From: a virus
Taxonomy: Duplodnaviria > Heunggongvirae > Uroviricota > Caudoviricetes
Direction: 5' to 3' (one strand)
IMG/VR virus record: IMGVR_UViG_2563366929_000004
DNA: 5,051 nucleotides
Made by a program: the position numbers and the translations under genes. Each line of letters opens with the position of its first letter. The stretch's first letter is position 1. The notes beneath the pieces were generated by a model that was not told the DNA's origin, searched no databases, and saw only the letters and a list, made by a program, of their open reading frames with translations. Of this stretch, positions 1-5,051 are shown one piece after another.

Positions 1-36
1 AGATAAAACACTCTCCAGGAAACCCGGGGCGGTTCA
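1..36 (+). mobile_element. Right terminal inverted repeat of an IS3-family insertion sequence (IS629-like); the element body lies left of the window
   Basis: The reverse complement of 12..36 (TGAACCGCCCCGGGTTTCCTGGAGA) matches 23 of 25 positions of 4846..4870 (TGAACCGCCCCGGGAATCCTGGAGA), which sits just upstream of an IS3-family orfA. Assignment to IS629 rests on recalled termini, not a search. Confidence 0.7.
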
Positions 37-803
37 ATACGGGAGAACTCATAACCGCAGTCATGACATCTGCCGGAATAGTTCGATTGAATTTGTTTTA
101 GCGCCGGATACAGTTCGCGGAATAATGCCTGTGAGCGGTTGGCATAATCCCATAGCCATACAAGGCTGTTTGCTTCTTTTGCAGAAAGCTCGTTGGTTTT
201 CTTCTCTTGTTTGCCGATGAACTCACCTTCAAGCACTACCCTGTGGATGTACTCTACTGCTTGTGGTATCTGAGATGCATCAAGCTCTTCAATACTTTCC
301 ACATTGAAACGCTGATGAATCATTGCATAAGCTTCTGGGTACATTAGATGCTTTTTGCTGACTAGCATATTTACAGCATCACGAAGCGGAGTCCTGTCAT
401 CAACAGATGTTTTCTTCCGTGCATTTGCTGCCTCTCCCTTTGTCCAGTAGTCATGCAGCACAGTAAAGCATTCTTCCTGGTACTGAATCAGTTTATCGCG
501 GATGTCAGCACGAACTTTCTCAGGGTTGATGCTGAACAGCCATCCATTTAACTTCTTCAAAGGAAGGCAGAGTAGCTTACGAAGCTTACCATCAGCGGCA
601 ACCATGTTCATATGAACACAGTTGAATTTGCTAATCTGCTTCATGAGTTTTGTTTGCTGCGTTGACCAGCTCATTCCGAGGTTTTCAACGATTGGCTTCA
701 TCGCAACATATGCAACTCCGGCAGCCATGGCGGTGATAATTTGCTGACCGTTGAATGGCACGTAAGAGGTGTTCACTGCTTCTAAAATTGCTATACTATT
801 CAT
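37..803 (-). CDS. ant: Phage antirepressor, P22 Ant-like; 3' end interrupted by the IS at 36/37, and the frame reads on into the IS
   Basis: ATG at 803..801 with GGAG about 9 nt upstream. The open frame runs to the window edge (translation starts [46 protein letters not shown]). It is not in the ORF track because no stop lies in the window. N-terminus recalled as Ant-like; position downstream of arc and divergent from mnt supports this. Confidence 0.75.
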
Positions 804-884
804 GTTGGTTTTTCTCCACGGATTTACCGACAACCGAAGCCCTGACTGTTCCAGCAGTTGGGGCTTCACTGTTTTGATTTCTTT
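804..884 (+). ncRNA. Candidate sar-like antisense RNA covering the ant ribosome-binding site and start codon
   Basis: Extended -10 (TGcTATACT, 789..797) on the + strand just inside the ant 5' end. An imperfect hairpin (836..867, GAAGCCC/GGGCTTC core plus wobble-extended stem) followed by the T-rich ACTGTTTTGATTTCTTT lies about 30-80 nt downstream. P22 makes an antisense sar RNA at the equivalent position. The 804..1035 arc-ant spacer has no ORF longer than about 10 codons on the minus strand. Confidence 0.35.
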
Positions 885-1035
885 GCCGCATCAAGCATCA
901 CTTCTGAAAACGTGCGCTTGCCACTGAATACTCTTTCTCTTCTCAATTTTTCGTTCGTGCCAAATGATTCGCCATGAACAAAATTTGGTCTTAAAATGGT
1001 AATCGCAATCTCTTTGACTACTGCATCCAAGCGAA

Positions 1036-1188
1036 TCACACCGTTACCCCCTCTCTCTTCAGGCTGTCTATCAGGCGCTTGATAACCTCTGAGTTAAACG
1101 ACCTGCACTCTTCCTTTGCCCTGCTACCGATAGCATCCTTTAACGACTGCGGCATCCTTACCAAAATCTTACTTATTTCTTTCTCCAT
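1036..1188 (-). CDS. arc: Arc-like ribbon-helix-helix transcriptional repressor (50 aa)
   Basis: ATG at 1188 is preceded by GGAGGG 5 nt upstream. The translation MEKEISKILVRMPQSLKDAIGSRAKEECRSFNSEVIKRLIDSLKREGVTV resembles P22 Arc (the RSxNSE motif and KxEG C-terminus). The ORF-track start at 1224 is a TTG extension with no RBS. Confidence 0.8.
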   Translation of the reverse strand: MEKEISKILVRMPQSLKDAIGSRAKEECRSFNSEVIKRLIDSLKREGVTV

Positions 1189-1224
1189 GTTACCCTCCAC
1201 GCAAACAACTCTTTTCGAATACAA

Positions 1225-1290
1225 AAGATAGCAAAGTGAGTATATCTAGTCAAAATTTTTTTGCATACACTTTGCTATCAAATTGAATAC
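1225..1290. promoter_or_regulatory. Divergent arc/ant and mnt promoter-operator region with a perfect 12-bp inverted repeat
   Basis: GATAGCAAAGTG (1227..1238) and its exact reverse complement CACTTTGCTATC (1268..1279) are separated by 29 bp. On the minus strand, -35 TTGACT (1253..1248), a 17-bp spacer and -10 TATCTT (1230..1225) overlap one arm. On the + strand, TTGCAT (1261..1266) and TATCAA (1276..1281) are weaker candidates around the other arm. Confidence 0.5.
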
Positions 1291-1302
1291 CAAAGGTGTT
1301 AT

Positions 1303-1551
1303 ATGGCAAAGGGTGTGTCAATTTCTCCAACTACGGTAAGAATCCCTGAATCTTTACGCGAGGCTCTTGCTGTCAGAGCATCAAAAAATGGTCGCTCTGT
1401 TAACTCCGAGATCGTCATGATTTTGCAAGCCGCGATTGATGAAGATAGGTCGCCAAAGTCAGTTGAGTCATTTGCTCAGCAAGAAGCTGATAAATTCAAA
1501 GAGGCGCTACTTGAGACGCTAAAGACCATGTATGCTAAGGATGAAAAATAA
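1303..1551 (+). CDS. mnt: Mnt-like ribbon-helix-helix repressor (82 aa)
   Basis: ATG at 1303 with AAGGTG 5 nt upstream. MAKGVSISPTTVRIPESLREALAVRASKNGRSVNSEIVMILQAAI... aligns by eye with P22 Mnt, including a similar C-terminal helix (...LLETLKTMYAK). It is divergent from arc. The ORF-track start at 1261 is a TTG extension. Confidence 0.8.
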   Translation: MAKGVSISPTTVRIPESLREALAVRASKNGRSVNSEIVMILQAAIDEDRSPKSVESFAQQEADKFKEALLETLKTMYAKDEK

Positions 1552-2087
1552 TGCTGCACACAATTCATTTCTTATGCCCTGTTAACACTGCCACTGTTGG
1601 GCAACTTCAGAACCACTGTCTCACCGCATTATCTCAAGGCGCAACTGAATTAAATATCCATATATCAAGTCAGGGAGGGGAAACTGCTGCTGGCTTTACT
1701 GCGTATAACTTTCTTAAGTCACTCCCTGTTACCGTTAGAACTCACAACATAAGCAATGTTGAATCCATAGCTAATATCGTTTTCCTGGCTGGCTCAGAAC
1801 GTTTCGCAAACCCATTATCAAGATTCCTGTTACATCCTCTATTATGGTGCTTTGCCTCCCCAGCCGCCGACCATGCCAGATTGAGAGAGTACGGGAAATG
1901 CCTCGATAACGATCTTGATCGCTTCGTTGAGACGTTCAATATCGACATCGGAACCCATATTAGGTGGGCATCCCTGATAGCAGACTCGACCATTTTGGAT
2001 GCTAACAAGGCTCTTGAGCATGGCATAATTAATTCCATAAAAACTGCAAGGCTGGCATCCAATCAGGCAAACTGGTGGGTTGTTTGA
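1551..2087 (+). CDS. ClpP-fold (S14-like) serine peptidase homologue, 178 aa
   Basis: The ATG overlaps the mnt stop (TAATG), with AAGGA about 9 nt upstream. By eye, ...LNIHISSQGGETAAGFTAYNFLKSLPVTVRTHNISNVESIANIVFLAGSERFANPLSRFLLHP... aligns with the E. coli ClpP core (YINSPGG...GQAASMGAFLLTAG...RVMIHQP). The candidate catalytic Ser (ESIAN) and His (LLHP) are conserved; an Asp lies near the expected position. Confidence 0.7.
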   Translation: MLHTIHFLCPVNTATVGQLQNHCLTALSQGATELNIHISSQGGETAAGFTAYNFLKSLPVTVRTHNISNVESIANIVFLAGSERFANPLSRFLLHPLLWCFASPAADHARLREYGKCLDNDLDRFVETFNIDIGTHIRWASLIADSTILDANKALEHGIINSIKTARLASNQANWWVV

Positions 2088-2110
2088 TGGGTAAATCATG
2101 ATTACTCCTT

Positions 2111-2138
2111 ATAAAAAACCCACCTGACGGTGGGTTTA
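2111..2138. terminator. Bidirectional Rho-independent terminator between convergent genes
   Basis: The stem AACCCACC (2117..2124) / GGTGGGTT (2129..2136) with loop TGAC is flanked by an A-tract (2111..2118) on one side and a short T run on the other. It sits between the ClpP-like stop (2087) and the YafO-like stop (2136). Confidence 0.6.
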
Positions 2139-2585
2139 GTCAAACATAGTGTTTCTAAAGTCTCTCGCATACCCTGCTAACACTCTCATTCTATTATGAT
2201 TGTTAGCAGACATGTGAGCTACAGGATGAAAAAGAGCAATCAATGAATACCTGTTCTCATCAAAAAGATTTTGTGCATAAACGAGAGCGGTATTGGATGT
2301 TTTATGCCACTGCAACTTTTGCGGTGTGCTGATATCTGTGCCATTTTTTATTGGCTCAAATTTATTTTCACCAATTGCTAAATGAAGGTGCATAAGGCCT
2401 GCATCTTCAATATCAGGAGGTCGATGATAAGAGGTGTCTCTGCCAAAATAGCTGGGCAACGTTCCCGTAGACTTGTAGATGATAAAATCATCTACAAGTG
2501 TTTGTTTTAAATCAGGAAACTCAACAAAAACCGGGGAGAAAAAATAGTCAAAACTATCCTGATTATATTCCACGGTTACTTGCAT
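2136..2585 (-). CDS. YafO-family toxin homologue (ribosome-dependent mRNA interferase family), 149 aa
   Basis: ATG at 2585 with GAGGT 6 nt upstream. Blocks ...DDFIIYKSTGTLPSYFGRD..., ...LMHLHLAIGENKFEP... and ...ALVYAQNLFDENRYSLIALFHPVAHMSANNHNRM... match recalled E. coli YafO segments (FISYKRDGVLPDIFGRD, HIHLANENNPFPP, LVYCQGAFDEQAWLLIAILKPEPHKLARDNNQM). Not verified by search. Confidence 0.7.
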   Translation of the reverse strand: MQVTVEYNQDSFDYFFSPVFVEFPDLKQTLVDDFIIYKSTGTLPSYFGRDTSYHRPPDIEDAGLMHLHLAIGENKFEPIKNGTDISTPQKLQWHKTSNTALVYAQNLFDENRYSLIALFHPVAHMSANNHNRMRVLAGYARDFRNTMFD

Positions 2586-2593
2586 GTTTTACC

Positions 2594-3160
2594 TCAGTGG
2601 AAGTTACCAGAGTGAAACACACGAGTCCCGTGCTCAGCAAGCGCACGCAAACCAGCCATATCTACGGAACTATCAAAAACAACCGGAACACATGAGCGTT
2701 GTTTAATAAGACTATTCAGGTTGGTTACGGCAGATCTGGCATCAGCAACAACGATATAGATATCTCTTGCGATCTCTTTAAAATCAGCAGAAGCTTCTTT
2801 GAATACCGATTTCATTGCCCCTTCAAGTCCTCTCAATTGATGCTCTATCAATCGAGACTTTTCTGGTTCAATGATAGACAACACATTGTCTACATTCTCA
2901 TCGGTAGCGTTTGCAAGAACACGATAAGCGTATTTCAGCATTCGAGACAATTCTTTAATCGAAGACACCGCCTCATGAAGCTCATCATTAGCCCGTTCAC
3001 TGCTGAATGAGGATTGATGGTAAGCGTGCTGAACGTTATCAGTAACAACCACCTCACAACTGAACGCAGAAGCTTGCTGTAATAGCAAACCTATTGCGAC
3101 TCCAGCTTTGGCAGCGTTCAAGCTAAACATTTCATCAATCCCATTAGTCTCATTGCTCAT
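2594..3160 (-). CDS. Hypothetical acidic 188-aa protein, upstream partner of the YafO-like toxin; family unknown
   Basis: ATG at 3160 with AAGGAGG 5 nt upstream. The ORF-track start at 3190 is a TTG extension. Its TGA stop (2596..2594) lies inside the toxin RBS (TGAGGT), leaving an 8-nt gap. No YefM/Phd, RHH or HTH signature is recognisable by eye. Confidence 0.65.
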   Translation of the reverse strand: MSNETNGIDEMFSLNAAKAGVAIGLLLQQASAFSCEVVVTDNVQHAYHQSSFSSERANDELHEAVSSIKELSRMLKYAYRVLANATDENVDNVLSIIEPEKSRLIEHQLRGLEGAMKSVFKEASADFKEIARDIYIVVADARSAVTNLNSLIKQRSCVPVVFDSSVDMAGLRALAEHGTRVFHSGNFH

Positions 3161-3227
3161 ACAAACCTCCTTCTTATCGGAGATTATCAATAGCTATGCA
3201 TCCATTGAATACACGCTATGCGCAATA

Positions 3228-3256
3228 AGTTTACGTCACGTGATATCATTATGCAA
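3228..3256 (-). promoter_or_regulatory. Putative promoter of the 188-aa/YafO-like operon with palindromes in the spacer
   Basis: On the minus strand, -35 TTGCAT (3256..3251), a 17-bp spacer and -10 TAAACT (3233..3228). The spacer holds overlapping palindromes TCACGTGA (3236..3243) and TGATATCA (3241..3248). A direct repeat GCTATGC (3193..3199 and 3215..3221) lies downstream. Confidence 0.4.
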
Positions 3257-3335
3257 CCACCGTTCTATCACCGACTAACTTTACTCCCACTCCTATACAT
3301 CATCTGGTATCCTGCGCAAAACTAAGGAGGTTGGT

Positions 3336-3686
3336 GTGAATGCTCAGTCTGTCATCATGGTTTTCCTTGGGCTGATTGTCGCAAAACTATATCCAGACTG
3401 GTGGAAAGGGGCATTAGCTACTGTCGCCATCTATTTGCTTTTATCCATCGTTAAGCGATCACTCGCTGAGACCGTAAATCAAGCAAAACGTTTCTCATTT
3501 AAGAGTTTAATAAACTATGTTACTGGGCTTATTTTTTGCCTTTCAATTCTGATCGCTTCGGCTTTTTTGCCCGTATCAATAGCTAATTTTTTTGGCGCAC
3601 CATATGAGGTAGGTTATCTATTCTCTGTTTCCTGTCTTGCCATTGCTCTTCTTTACCTGTGGACGAGATCAAAGAATAAAAATTAG
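3336..3686 (+). CDS. Small integral membrane protein (116 aa, about 4 predicted TM helices), function unknown
   Basis: GTG start at 3336 with AAGGAGG (3324..3330) 5 nt upstream. Four hydrophobic stretches (SVIMVFLGLIVAKL, ALATVAIYLLLSIV, LINYVTGLIFCLSILIASAFL, VGYLFSVSCLAIALLYLW) and a basic C-terminus (RSKNKN). Divergent from the toxin operon. Confidence 0.65.
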   Translation: MNAQSVIMVFLGLIVAKLYPDWWKGALATVAIYLLLSIVKRSLAETVNQAKRFSFKSLINYVTGLIFCLSILIASAFLPVSIANFFGAPYEVGYLFSVSCLAIALLYLWTRSKNKN

Positions 3687-3703
3687 CCATCCGTGGCTGC
3701 CAG

Positions 3704-4845
3704 TTATTGAGCTTCTTTTTGTGATGCCTGTGCGACTCTGGTGAGCGATTGTGTGACCGTACTGATCGCTCTGTCATATGCTGTGCTACCTTTTGGCGTA
3801 TTTGCCAGACGTAACAAGGCATTTCGTATAACAGGGCTTTCGTATGCCTTCGCAGCTCCTCCTACGACACCAGCAGCAGGAACAACAAACGCAGCCGTTT
3901 TTAGCATCCCCGCTAATACTGCTGCGTTTATGATGCCACCACCAACTAACAATCCATAAAGCTGCTGACCATTTAAGTTTTGAACGTTCGCTTTTGCCGC
4001 GTGTCTTGTATCGTTGAGGTATTTAATAACGCCGTCCAGTTCCTTTCCATGTACGCCTTTAAAGAAAGTTGCTGATTGCTTCCTGTTCCGGTGTAACGCA
4101 TTAATAAACTTTTCAACACTAATATTTCCAGACGGATCAGTCGCCTTATCTACAGCATTCTGAACTATGGCTGCTCGTGCGTTTTGCCTACCATTGTCAT
4201 CCAGAAGCCTGTAAAGCTGAGAACGTTCTGATGGGTTTTGGCTAAAAACGAGTTTTGTTACATCCTCAGGTGTAGCCTTGCCGCTGGCTATTGCCTTTTG
4301 AACGCGCGTTCTTCCCATCATGTCATTGAATCTAGCCCATGAGCGATCAACCCTAGACATATTGGCAGCTTCTTCTGAGCCTAGTTTTTGGGATACTGCT
4401 TTTTTCATATCCGCTGTATATGCCTTGTAGACAATATCGCTGGCTTTCTGGAGCGTGTCTTTATCAACAGTCTCGTTTGAATTCATGAACCGCTTTCGAA
4501 GGTCAGTTCTGTTTTCTCTCGCCAGACGCAGGTCATTGGGTCCGCTGGTGATATCGTCTTTAAATTGCTGCAAGACTTTTACCGCGGCTCTATCCTGAGA
4601 TTTGCCCGGGCGGCTTAACACGGCAATCTGATTGTCGATAGCTTTTACCGTGTTTGAGAGATCGACAGGGGTATCCCCCATAGCGTCAATTATGCGGTTA
4701 TATCGCTTTCCTGCTGCCTCAATGAATTTTTGTTGCCCTTTAGTCGCAGATTCATAAAGCTGTTTATCAGAAATGCCACCCAGACCATCGCTAAATGTTC
4801 TGACTAAATTTTCTCGTGCTTGTTGTTGATTCAGCCGATTCTTAC
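3704..4845 (-). pseudogene. 5'-truncated gene for a large phage protein (possibly a gp16-like DNA-ejection protein), interrupted by the IS at 4845/4846
   Basis: The frame stays open from 3704 up through 4845 and into the IS inverted repeat; the first in-frame stop upstream (4871..4873) lies inside the IS. The first in-frame ATG is at 4681, the 325-aa ORF in the track. The C-terminal part has a Gly/Ala-rich hydrophobic stretch (LYGLLVGGGIINAAVLAGMLKTAAFVVPAAGVVGGAAKAY). The product call rests only on position relative to the immI genes. Confidence 0.5.
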
Positions 4846-5051
4846 TGAACCGCCCCGGGAATCCTGGAGACTAAACTTCCTGAGAAAGAGGTAAACAGGA
4901 TGACTAAAAATACTCGTTTTTCCCCCGAAGTCCGTCAACGGGCAGTCCGTATGGTTCTGGAAAGTCAGAGCGAATATGACTCACAATGGGCGACAATTTG
5001 TTCCATTGCTCCAAAGATTGGCTGTACGCCGGAGACTCTGCGTGTCTGGGT
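4846..5051 (+). mobile_element. Left end of an IS3-family insertion sequence (IS629-like), running off the window
   Basis: Terminal repeat TGAACCGCCCCGGGAATCCTGGAGA at 4846..4870, followed 29 bp later by the orfA start. It is the inverted counterpart of 12..36. Confidence 0.8.
4900..5051 (+). CDS. IS3-family transposase OrfA (IS629-like), N-terminal part; partial
   Basis: ATG at 4900 with AGAGG about 10 nt upstream. Translation [50 protein letters not shown] matches the recalled IS629/IS1203-type OrfA N-terminus with its helix-turn-helix region. Confidence 0.85.

Follow-up and report, generated by a model that had tools for sequence, protein, structure and literature searches.

Gene content of the interval between mnt and gene 16

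The 5,051 nucleotide (nt) stretch of viral DNA in IMG/VR record IMGVR_UViG_2563366929_000004 (the window) is part of a degraded P22-like prophage. Positions 36-4845 were 100% identical to the P22-like prophages of Escherichia coli S88, APEC O1, ATCC 11775 and related extraintestinal and avian pathogenic E. coli (ExPEC/APEC) strains, and in S88 these 4.8 kb lie inside an intact P22-like prophage with tRNA-Arg/intS as integration site. The gene order in S88 (locus L002; compared loci carry L numbers) is tailspike, ant, arc, mnt, cargo and gp16, so that the interval is flanked by homologues of gene 16 and gene 9. Four cargo genes in three modules are present between mnt and gene 16 (Table 1): a gene for a truncated ClpP-like peptidase directly behind mnt, a putative toxin-antitoxin-type pair with a YafO-family toxin in the middle position, and a gene for a small membrane protein in the position held by sieA in P22. 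An earlier note on this DNA had placed the corresponding open reading frames (ORFs) between gene 16 and mnt, and they were found there. All four cargo genes are under purifying selection, with ratios of nonsynonymous to synonymous substitution (dN/dS) of 0.03-0.39 and saturated synonymous sites, which argues that the cargo ORFs are real genes. We consider it likely that positions 1551-3686 are the cargo part of the "ant moron", the name given by Villafane et al. (2008) to the gene 16-gene 9 region of P22-like phages (PMC2629481), and that this part is made up of three neighbouring positions whose contents are exchanged independently of one another, by recombination at short conserved junctions; a function is proposed below for each position.

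The variability of the region is not in itself a discovery, as it was already described in 2008, with ten types in sixteen genomes and rapid gene flux (PMC2629481), and the phage L genome paper again called the region very variable. The examples given in 2008 include the APEC O1 (APEC-1) and UTI89 prophages, with six genes each (PMC2629481). The window shares with the ant moron its location between gene 16 and the tailspike gene, the mnt-arc-sar-ant core and a gene content that differs among related phages, and the identity to positions 36-4845 noted above extends to APEC-1 itself. The 2008 paper showed the extra genes as unrelated boxes to which no function was assigned (PMC2629481); the present analysis adds what the modules are, genome counts showing that they assort independently, the breakpoints and the leader held in common with sieA. 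Our literature search found no paper describing the three cargo modules themselves. As the region has been known since 2008, the finding opens no new question, and the locus is ordinary in kind, with cargo that is uncharacterised and moderately interesting; for S88, APEC O1 and their relatives, a prominent pathogenic lineage, the analysis does replace anonymous "hypothetical" genes by three testable hypotheses.

Table 1. Features of the window, with positions, strand and supporting evidence
Feature	Position	Strand	Evidence
End of an insertion sequence (IS) of the IS3 family, truncating ant, outside the cargo	1-35		L003 annotation; thousands of E. coli genome matches
ant antirepressor gene, C-terminal end cut by IS	36-803	-	RefSeq 'phage antirepressor Ant' in S88; DNA identity
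sar antisense RNA, immI region	804-870	+	Rfam RF00262, 83.9 bits, E = 3e-17
ORF of 57 amino acids (aa) between arc and ant	866-1039	-	phrog_17642, 1.3e-43; annotated in S88
arc	1036-1188	-	Pfam Arc, 9.6e-12; RefSeq coordinates via L002
mnt-like ribbon-helix-helix repressor gene, first of a two-gene operon	1303-1551	+	Pfam Arc, 1.4e-10
ClpP-family peptidase gene, N-terminally truncated, 178 aa	1551-2087	+	PF00574 (CLP_protease), 2.2e-11, 44.4 bits
Hairpin between the convergent ClpP-like and YafO-like genes	2116-2137		AAACCCACC-tgac-GGTGGGTTT, fold energy -16.2, -17.6 kcal/mol
YafO-family toxin gene, 149 aa, second gene of pair	2136-2585	-	PF13957 (YafO_toxin), 3.4e-22, 78.9 bits; phrog_1651, 1e-47
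All-helical partner gene, 188 aa, putative antitoxin	2594-3160	-	Strong ribosome-binding site; 8 nt upstream of toxin gene
Candidate toxin-operon promoter	3228-3256	-	TTGCAT, 17 nt, TAAACT; below scan threshold
Conserved 34-nt leader TGGTATCCTGCgCAAAACTAAGGAGGTTGGTGTG	3305-3338	+	Extended -10-like motif, ribosome-binding site, GTG start
Membrane protein gene, 116 aa, four hydrophobic helices	3336-3686	+	Hydropathy; AlphaFold2 (AF2) helices at low confidence
Short hairpin between membrane gene and gene 16	3685-3698		Minus-strand scan match
P22-gp16-family DNA ejection protein gene, C-terminal part	3704-4845	-	phrog_770, phrog_29117; RefSeq 'P22-gp16 family' in S88
End of second IS3-family copy, inverted orientation	4846-5051		L003 annotation

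Independent assortment of the three modules

Comparison with P22-like relatives showed high variability of the interval, bearing out the earlier description of it as accessory. The P22 gene order given there (16, sieA, mnt, arc, ant, 9) is correct, except that ORF59 was omitted; read in the orientation of the window, P22 has mnt, ORF59, sieA and gene 16, and epsilon34 has two unrelated genes in the mnt-gene 16 interval. Both phiv205-1 and E. coli 01_3327 match the window at 98-99% identity over mnt and the ClpP-like gene and have a different pair in the middle. Salmonella prophages carry the pair of 188-aa protein and YafO-like toxin in the same place (54-65% protein identity), where the neighbours differ and the ClpP-like gene is missing.

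Among 5,426 complete E. coli genomes, the ClpP-like gene was present in 128, the toxin pair in 55 and the membrane gene in 229, and all three modules occurred together in 51, where they are jointly 100% identical. Natural variants include a locus with mnt and the toxin pair without the ClpP-like gene (L023), and another (L022) in which a Panacea-domain pair is combined with the ClpP-like gene and the membrane gene of the window. Pairwise blastn placed the breakpoints at 1530/1531, 2112/2113, 2137/2138 and within 3299-3340, and relative to L023 the ClpP-like gene lies within a clean 582-bp indel (1531-2112). The 42-bp stretches 2096-2137 and 3299-3340 recur with 100% identity beside unrelated cargo, the former for instance in L024. 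The earlier note had described a single cassette in the place of sieA; accessory cargo in a P22-like immunity region is real, but the three modules are found separately and with discrete breakpoints, and neither the single unit nor a layout unrelated to that of sieA (see below) held up.

The compositional difference from the flanks, whose absence the earlier note had named as a refutation, was marginal and close to none (GC content 41.8% in the cassette versus 44.5% in the flanks, chi-square p = 0.06). By gene, the ClpP-like gene (45.1%) matches the flanks, and the YafO-like gene (37.8%) is the only one standing out. We rejected composition as a criterion for foreignness, since it was not discriminating and the whole prophage is mosaic and AT-rich relative to its host; composition being a poor test in a mosaic phage, we relied on comparative evidence.

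Cargo products and their proposed functions

The layout of the cargo apart from the late operon makes lysogen-expressed cargo a fair reading, and we infer such expression for what follows. The 34-nt leader of the membrane gene is 97% identical to P22 (L004 4389-4422), where it ends in the sieA start codon, and 95% identical to the sequence before epsilon34 gene 14. At least five unrelated envelope-directed ORFs are plugged in behind this one conserved leader, namely SieA, the 116-aa protein of the window, a 62-aa protein with two membrane helices, epsilon34 gp14 with one N-terminal helix, and a 111-aa protein with a signal peptide. GTG 3336 lines up with the sieA start and has the same ribosome-binding site in front of it, which speaks for it as the true start of the membrane gene; the RefSeq start at ATG 3357 (109 aa) is probably placed 21 nt too far downstream.

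In P22, sieA runs towards gene 16 and stops at a distance of 23 nt from the end of that gene; the 116-aa gene likewise faces gene 16 in all cases, at a distance of 18 nt from its stop. Members of the 116-aa family, which come from E. coli, Edwardsiella, Yersinia and Salmonella, always occupied this spot, also in prophages without immI. The gene is inherited as one block together with the 3′ half of gene 16, and this block is 95% identical in L027-L031 and 70% identical in Yersinia. The membrane gene is therefore not an unrelated module "instead of" sieA, as had been supposed, since it shares the P22 sieA leader and start codon and travels with gene 16. Profile searches with the 116-aa protein gave no family match. 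P22 sieA is a proven exclusion gene that is dispensable for growth; SieA blocks DNA entry, with escape mutations in the C-terminal parts of gp16 and gp20, and sieA is carried by 22 of 66 P22-like phages (Leavitt et al. 2024, PMC10883804). The window protein resembles SieA in position, orientation, distance to gene 16, leader and start codon, and in being a small polytopic membrane protein. We propose that it would be expressed from the SieA leader and start as an inner-membrane protein linked to the gene 16 type, and that, in the manner of SieA, it most likely opposes incoming phage DNA at the envelope. That it excludes P22-like phages is a tentative proposal, and somewhat doubtful.

The ClpP-like protein exceeds the PF00574 gathering threshold of 20.2 bits. 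Its ATG overlaps the mnt stop codon (TAATG, 1549-1553), which makes the gene the second cistron of the mnt operon and no separate unit; there was no sign of the promoter of its own that had been ascribed to it. A full-length alignment gave 40% identity to PpClpP1 of Pseudomonas plecoglossicida (PDB 9UXT, E = 1.6e-35). The N-terminally truncated PpClpP1 assembles into a homotetradecamer whose pore measures 42.7 A; its peptidase activity is low and it does not bind ClpX; Ser and His are essential and the third residue is non-essential, the enzyme being active with a Pro at the Asp position, and together with canonical ClpP it forms a mixed complex with higher activity (PMC12900304). The likeness includes the N-terminal truncation and the catalytic Ser and His without a conserved Asp: Ser72 and His95 are invariant in 27 homologues, with a variable Asp position. 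The Pfam match begins at profile position 37 of 182 and the alignment with the truncated PpClpP1 runs end to end, and by both the protein lacks the N-terminal axial loops for ClpX/ClpA docking.

PpClpP1 differs in being a chromosomal paralogue of the P. putida group, whereas the window family is prophage cargo in Enterobacterales, with the window gene joined to the mnt operon. The possibility that PpClpP1 is itself prophage-borne was ruled out by its conservation across the P. putida group (88-100% identity in 80 loci, L034-L113, out of 236 relatives) together with a left flank that was partly syntenic and non-phage-looking in the twelve loci compared. The phage copies are thus relatives of a bacterial paralogue; the PpClpP1 structure paper does not mention prophage or phage-borne relatives (PMC12900304). 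Homologues of the window protein with 52-60% identity are encoded by solitary genes, antisense to lytic genes, at three types of site. They lie between the lysis genes and the small terminase or other packaging-module genes in Klebsiella lambdoid prophages and adjoin the N gene in Proteus lambdoid prophages, and a Chromobacterium myovirus prophage also has a solitary homologue. By its genomic contexts the gene shows classical moron behaviour, with no fixed partner gene, and its solitary occurrence in the Klebsiella, Chromobacterium and Proteus prophages led us to reject a constant, toxin-antitoxin-like pairing with a ribbon-helix-helix gene. A truncated ClpP family has thus spread as solitary prophage cargo, with one relative recently solved structurally.

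Two database names for the protein overstate what the sequence supports. The name 'head maturation protease' in phiv205-1 (L001 3501-4037) does not reach the head-protease cut-off, the NCBIfam head maturation protease model NF045542 giving 49.3 bits (5e-13) against a 120-bit cut-off, and the RefSeq name 'ATP-dependent Clp protease proteolytic subunit' (WP_000903306.1) ignores that the ATPase-docking N-terminal region is missing. We propose that the peptidase is translationally coupled to Mnt and would be produced in lysogens from Pmnt, and that by analogy with PpClpP1 it most likely forms an open-pore tetradecamer, in which Ser and His would make up the active site and on which ClpX and ClpA would find no surface to dock. 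This complex may mix with host ClpP and so alter proteolysis. An active oligomeric peptidase is probable, and a role in defence seems unlikely.

The toxin of the middle position exceeds the PF13957 gathering threshold of 25 bits, and its gene has the lowest dN/dS of the cargo (0.03). YafO is an mRNA endonuclease of the BECR fold with an antitoxin-first gene order (PMC11980606), and the window pair resembles YafN-YafO of E. coli K-12 in the YafO Pfam family, the partner-first order and the tight spacing. It differs in that the window toxin reaches only 79 bits against the 153-bit NCBIfam equivalog cut-off and is thus not the K-12 equivalog, and in its partner, which is a helical 188-aa protein of a phage-restricted family and not the ~97-aa Phd/YefM-type YafN. 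No Pfam or NCBIfam family was found for the 188-aa protein, its AF2 model is an all-helical bundle, and no solved relative was found for it or for the YafO-like toxin. Its family is very small: a 5.8-billion-protein index yielded six clusters, and 1.84 billion sequences searched exhaustively gave 23 representatives at E <= 1e-3. Conservation lies in the C-terminal motif F.S..DM.GLR.LA.HGT.VF.SG.FH.

Members of the 188-aa family were located directly upstream of a YafO-family gene in every context examined, that is, in P22-like prophages (same position), lambda-like tail clusters (L020; HK639), Pseudomonas temperate phages and E. coli phage PhiR40_1, with a gap of 8 nt in most loci and 16 nt in PhiR40_1. 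The two genes are thus kept together across P22-like, lambda-like and Pseudomonas phages, as in a toxin-antitoxin-type pair, and the toxins form a YafO subfamily with a ~180-aa helical partner in place of YafN, almost only in temperate phages. In PhiR40_1 (L114 222-761) the ~179-aa YafO partner is annotated as 'YafM antitoxin' and was placed by hhalign (96.8%) among the distant members of the 188-aa family; the protein upstream of YafO in a Klebsiella phage-plasmid (L116) showed no detectable relation to this family. Between the window (2136-3160) and L006 (6001-7025) the toxin is better conserved than its partner, with 89% versus 65% aa identity and a dN of 0.07 versus 0.25, and the divergence of the partner could stem from relaxed constraint or from diversifying pressure.

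In phiv205-1 and Emek the middle position is taken by a SocA/Panacea antitoxin (PF13274, 4.4e-14) and its partner of 160 aa. Such PanA/Panacea pairs have the same middle position and orientation in phiv205-1, Emek and E. coli 01_3327, but their proteins are unrelated to the window pair, making them allelic alternatives and not homologues; the middle position therefore alternates between toxin-antitoxin-type pairs. We propose that in the window it holds a two-gene operon of this type, transcribed towards mnt, in which the 188-aa protein would neutralise a YafO-family mRNA endonuclease. The pair is in our view likely to be a working toxin-antitoxin system, and the chances that it acts in abortive infection rather than in addiction are about even. 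Should both the toxin pair and the leader-borne envelope genes prove to exclude phages, the locus would amount to a compact natural library, its exclusion genes being matched to the types of gene 16.

Several observations weigh against these functional proposals. The 116-aa protein has no sequence similarity to SieA (BLASTP against P22 SieA, E = 0.29, no real alignment), is shorter (116 versus 164 aa), and lacks the conserved C-terminal cytoplasmic motif FxRYPxEAxxFNK of SieA (Leavitt et al. 2024, PMC10883804), its sequence ending ...LLYLWTRSKNKN just after the last helix; its AF2 model, with a predicted local distance difference test (pLDDT) score of 58, is too poor for fold comparison. The third catalytic residue varies within the ClpP-like family, PpClpP1 is itself only weakly active (PMC12900304), and as PpClpP1 is a conserved chromosomal gene, any transfer of its function would be by analogy. 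The fold matches of the 188-aa protein are generic helical bundles, and no DNA-binding or known antitoxin domain was detected in it. A consensus promoter scan of the 175-bp spacer 3161-3335 gave no match. Finally, PADLOC (PADLOC-DB 2.0), run on the four cargo proteins, gave no hit or noise only (E >= 0.004), so that the defence-system prediction suggested in the earlier note found no known system among them, and nothing usable came from PADLOC on the alternative cargo.

The lack of a PADLOC match would also suit cargo that serves the phage itself, with the toxin pair as an addiction module retaining the prophage or its remnant in the chromosome, the ClpP-like protein tuning immI or induction (for example by turnover of Ant, Arc or repressor) and the membrane protein aiding phage DNA entry or lysis. 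The cargo survives in a prophage stripped of virion genes by IS3-mediated deletion, the ClpP-like gene is coupled to mnt in all 128 E. coli genomes that carry it, and the membrane gene is inherited with the gene 16 type, all of which fit such a role. We nevertheless regard it as unlikely, because the ClpP-like homologues elsewhere are unlinked to immI genes, exclusion is the proven function of P22 sieA, which has the same position and is not required for growth (PMC10883804), and each gene is absent from many P22-like phages, so that none is required for the lytic cycle. A more elaborate scheme is less probable still, in which truncated ClpP made with Mnt would co-assemble with host ClpP, just as PpClpP1 joins its canonical paralogue, and rewire ClpXP/ClpAP to stabilise lysogeny or harm superinfecting phages, and in which YafO would be set free on infection by the 188-aa protein, an antitoxin of a new class able to sense phage; if true, it would place two previously undescribed mechanisms of prophage defence or lysogeny control in one locus.

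The reading of the earlier note, that the modules were acquired horizontally as one defence island and move and work as a single anti-phage system, could draw on the 51 genomes with all three modules at 100% identity, the tight packing and the shared hairpins. These 51 genomes are near-identical, fitting clonal descent, and each module is far commoner alone than jointly; with the natural variants L022 and L023, the solitary ClpP-like homologues in other prophages and the toxin pair in lambda-like tail clusters without the other two modules, the distribution largely refutes a single island, which we consider very improbable. Weakest of all is the view that the ClpP-like gene is a displaced prohead protease and the remainder decaying filler: it has the phiv205-1 annotation, phrog_94 'head maturation protease' (7e-21) and the NCBIfam match on its side, but the NCBIfam score lies far under its cut-off, the bacterial truncated ClpP matches much better, the gene is outside the head cluster and antisense to the head genes, P22 heads are assembled with a recycled scaffold and no protease, and the cargo genes are under purifying selection with saturated synonymous sites, leaving this view hardly credible. 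Exchange of three separate cargo positions within the ant moron is thus the reading we retain.

Signals, immI core and insertion sequence ends

At 2116-2137, where the ClpP-like and YafO-like genes converge, a stable hairpin carries a good T-run on the minus strand, and the shared bidirectional terminator of the earlier note was to this extent recovered. We read the hairpin as a putative two-way terminator, and it also serves as a conserved mosaic junction. The terminator scan missed it, probably because extension of the stem into the flanking A/T runs consumes part of the T-run. The hairpin at 3685-3698 is a weak candidate terminator, with a fold energy no better than that of shuffled sequences. 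Within the YafO-like gene, a further hairpin (2471-2499, plus strand), antisense to the toxin gene, has a 13-bp perfect stem and a T-run; its 9-bp core results from the conserved peptide VDDFIIY and is lost in the distant homologues of HK639 and L020, and we rejected the hairpin as a probable by-product of coding and no signal.

The modules had also been credited with promoters of their own, of which weaker conserved motifs remain in the spacer 3161-3335, but no consensus promoter. Upstream of the toxin operon this spacer is ~80% conserved in four loci that are 70-75% identical overall, and in all four the minus-strand cores TTGC (3256-3251) and TA-ACT (3233-3228), 17 nt apart, are invariant, which makes TTGCAT/TAAACT a candidate promoter of the toxin operon. 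The leader at 3305-3338 contains TGgTATCCT, which resembles an extended -10 and is likewise a candidate promoter element.

The immI core was recognisable, as the earlier note had said, with arc and mnt assigned to the Arc family of Pfam and ant 84% identical in DNA to P22 ant (84-97% across the ant genes of P22 and epsilon34). The position of mnt matches P22 and epsilon34, and the mnt operon of a different P22-like E. coli prophage was strongly expressed in macrophages (preprint 10.1101/2022.10.28.514194). A perfect 12-nt inverted repeat at 1227-1238 and 1268-1279 (GATAGCAAAGTG / CACTTTGCTATC) flanks the divergent arc/mnt promoter region and may be operator-related. The sar RNA carries a terminator-like hairpin (836-867) detected by the scan, and overlaps the ant start region and the final codons of the 57-aa ORF. 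This ORF is without a counterpart in P22, and in related prophages it is replaced by ORFs of 66, 74 or 80 aa, which makes it a fourth small variable position, within immI.

The N-terminal part of gp16 has been lost to IS insertion. In FDAARGOS_1301-type genomes, two inverted IS3-family copies (L003 4056-5269 and 10167-11380) interrupt ant and gene 16, and in the same genome the virion gene block is deleted up to a replication gene, with immI and the cargo retained between the IS copies.

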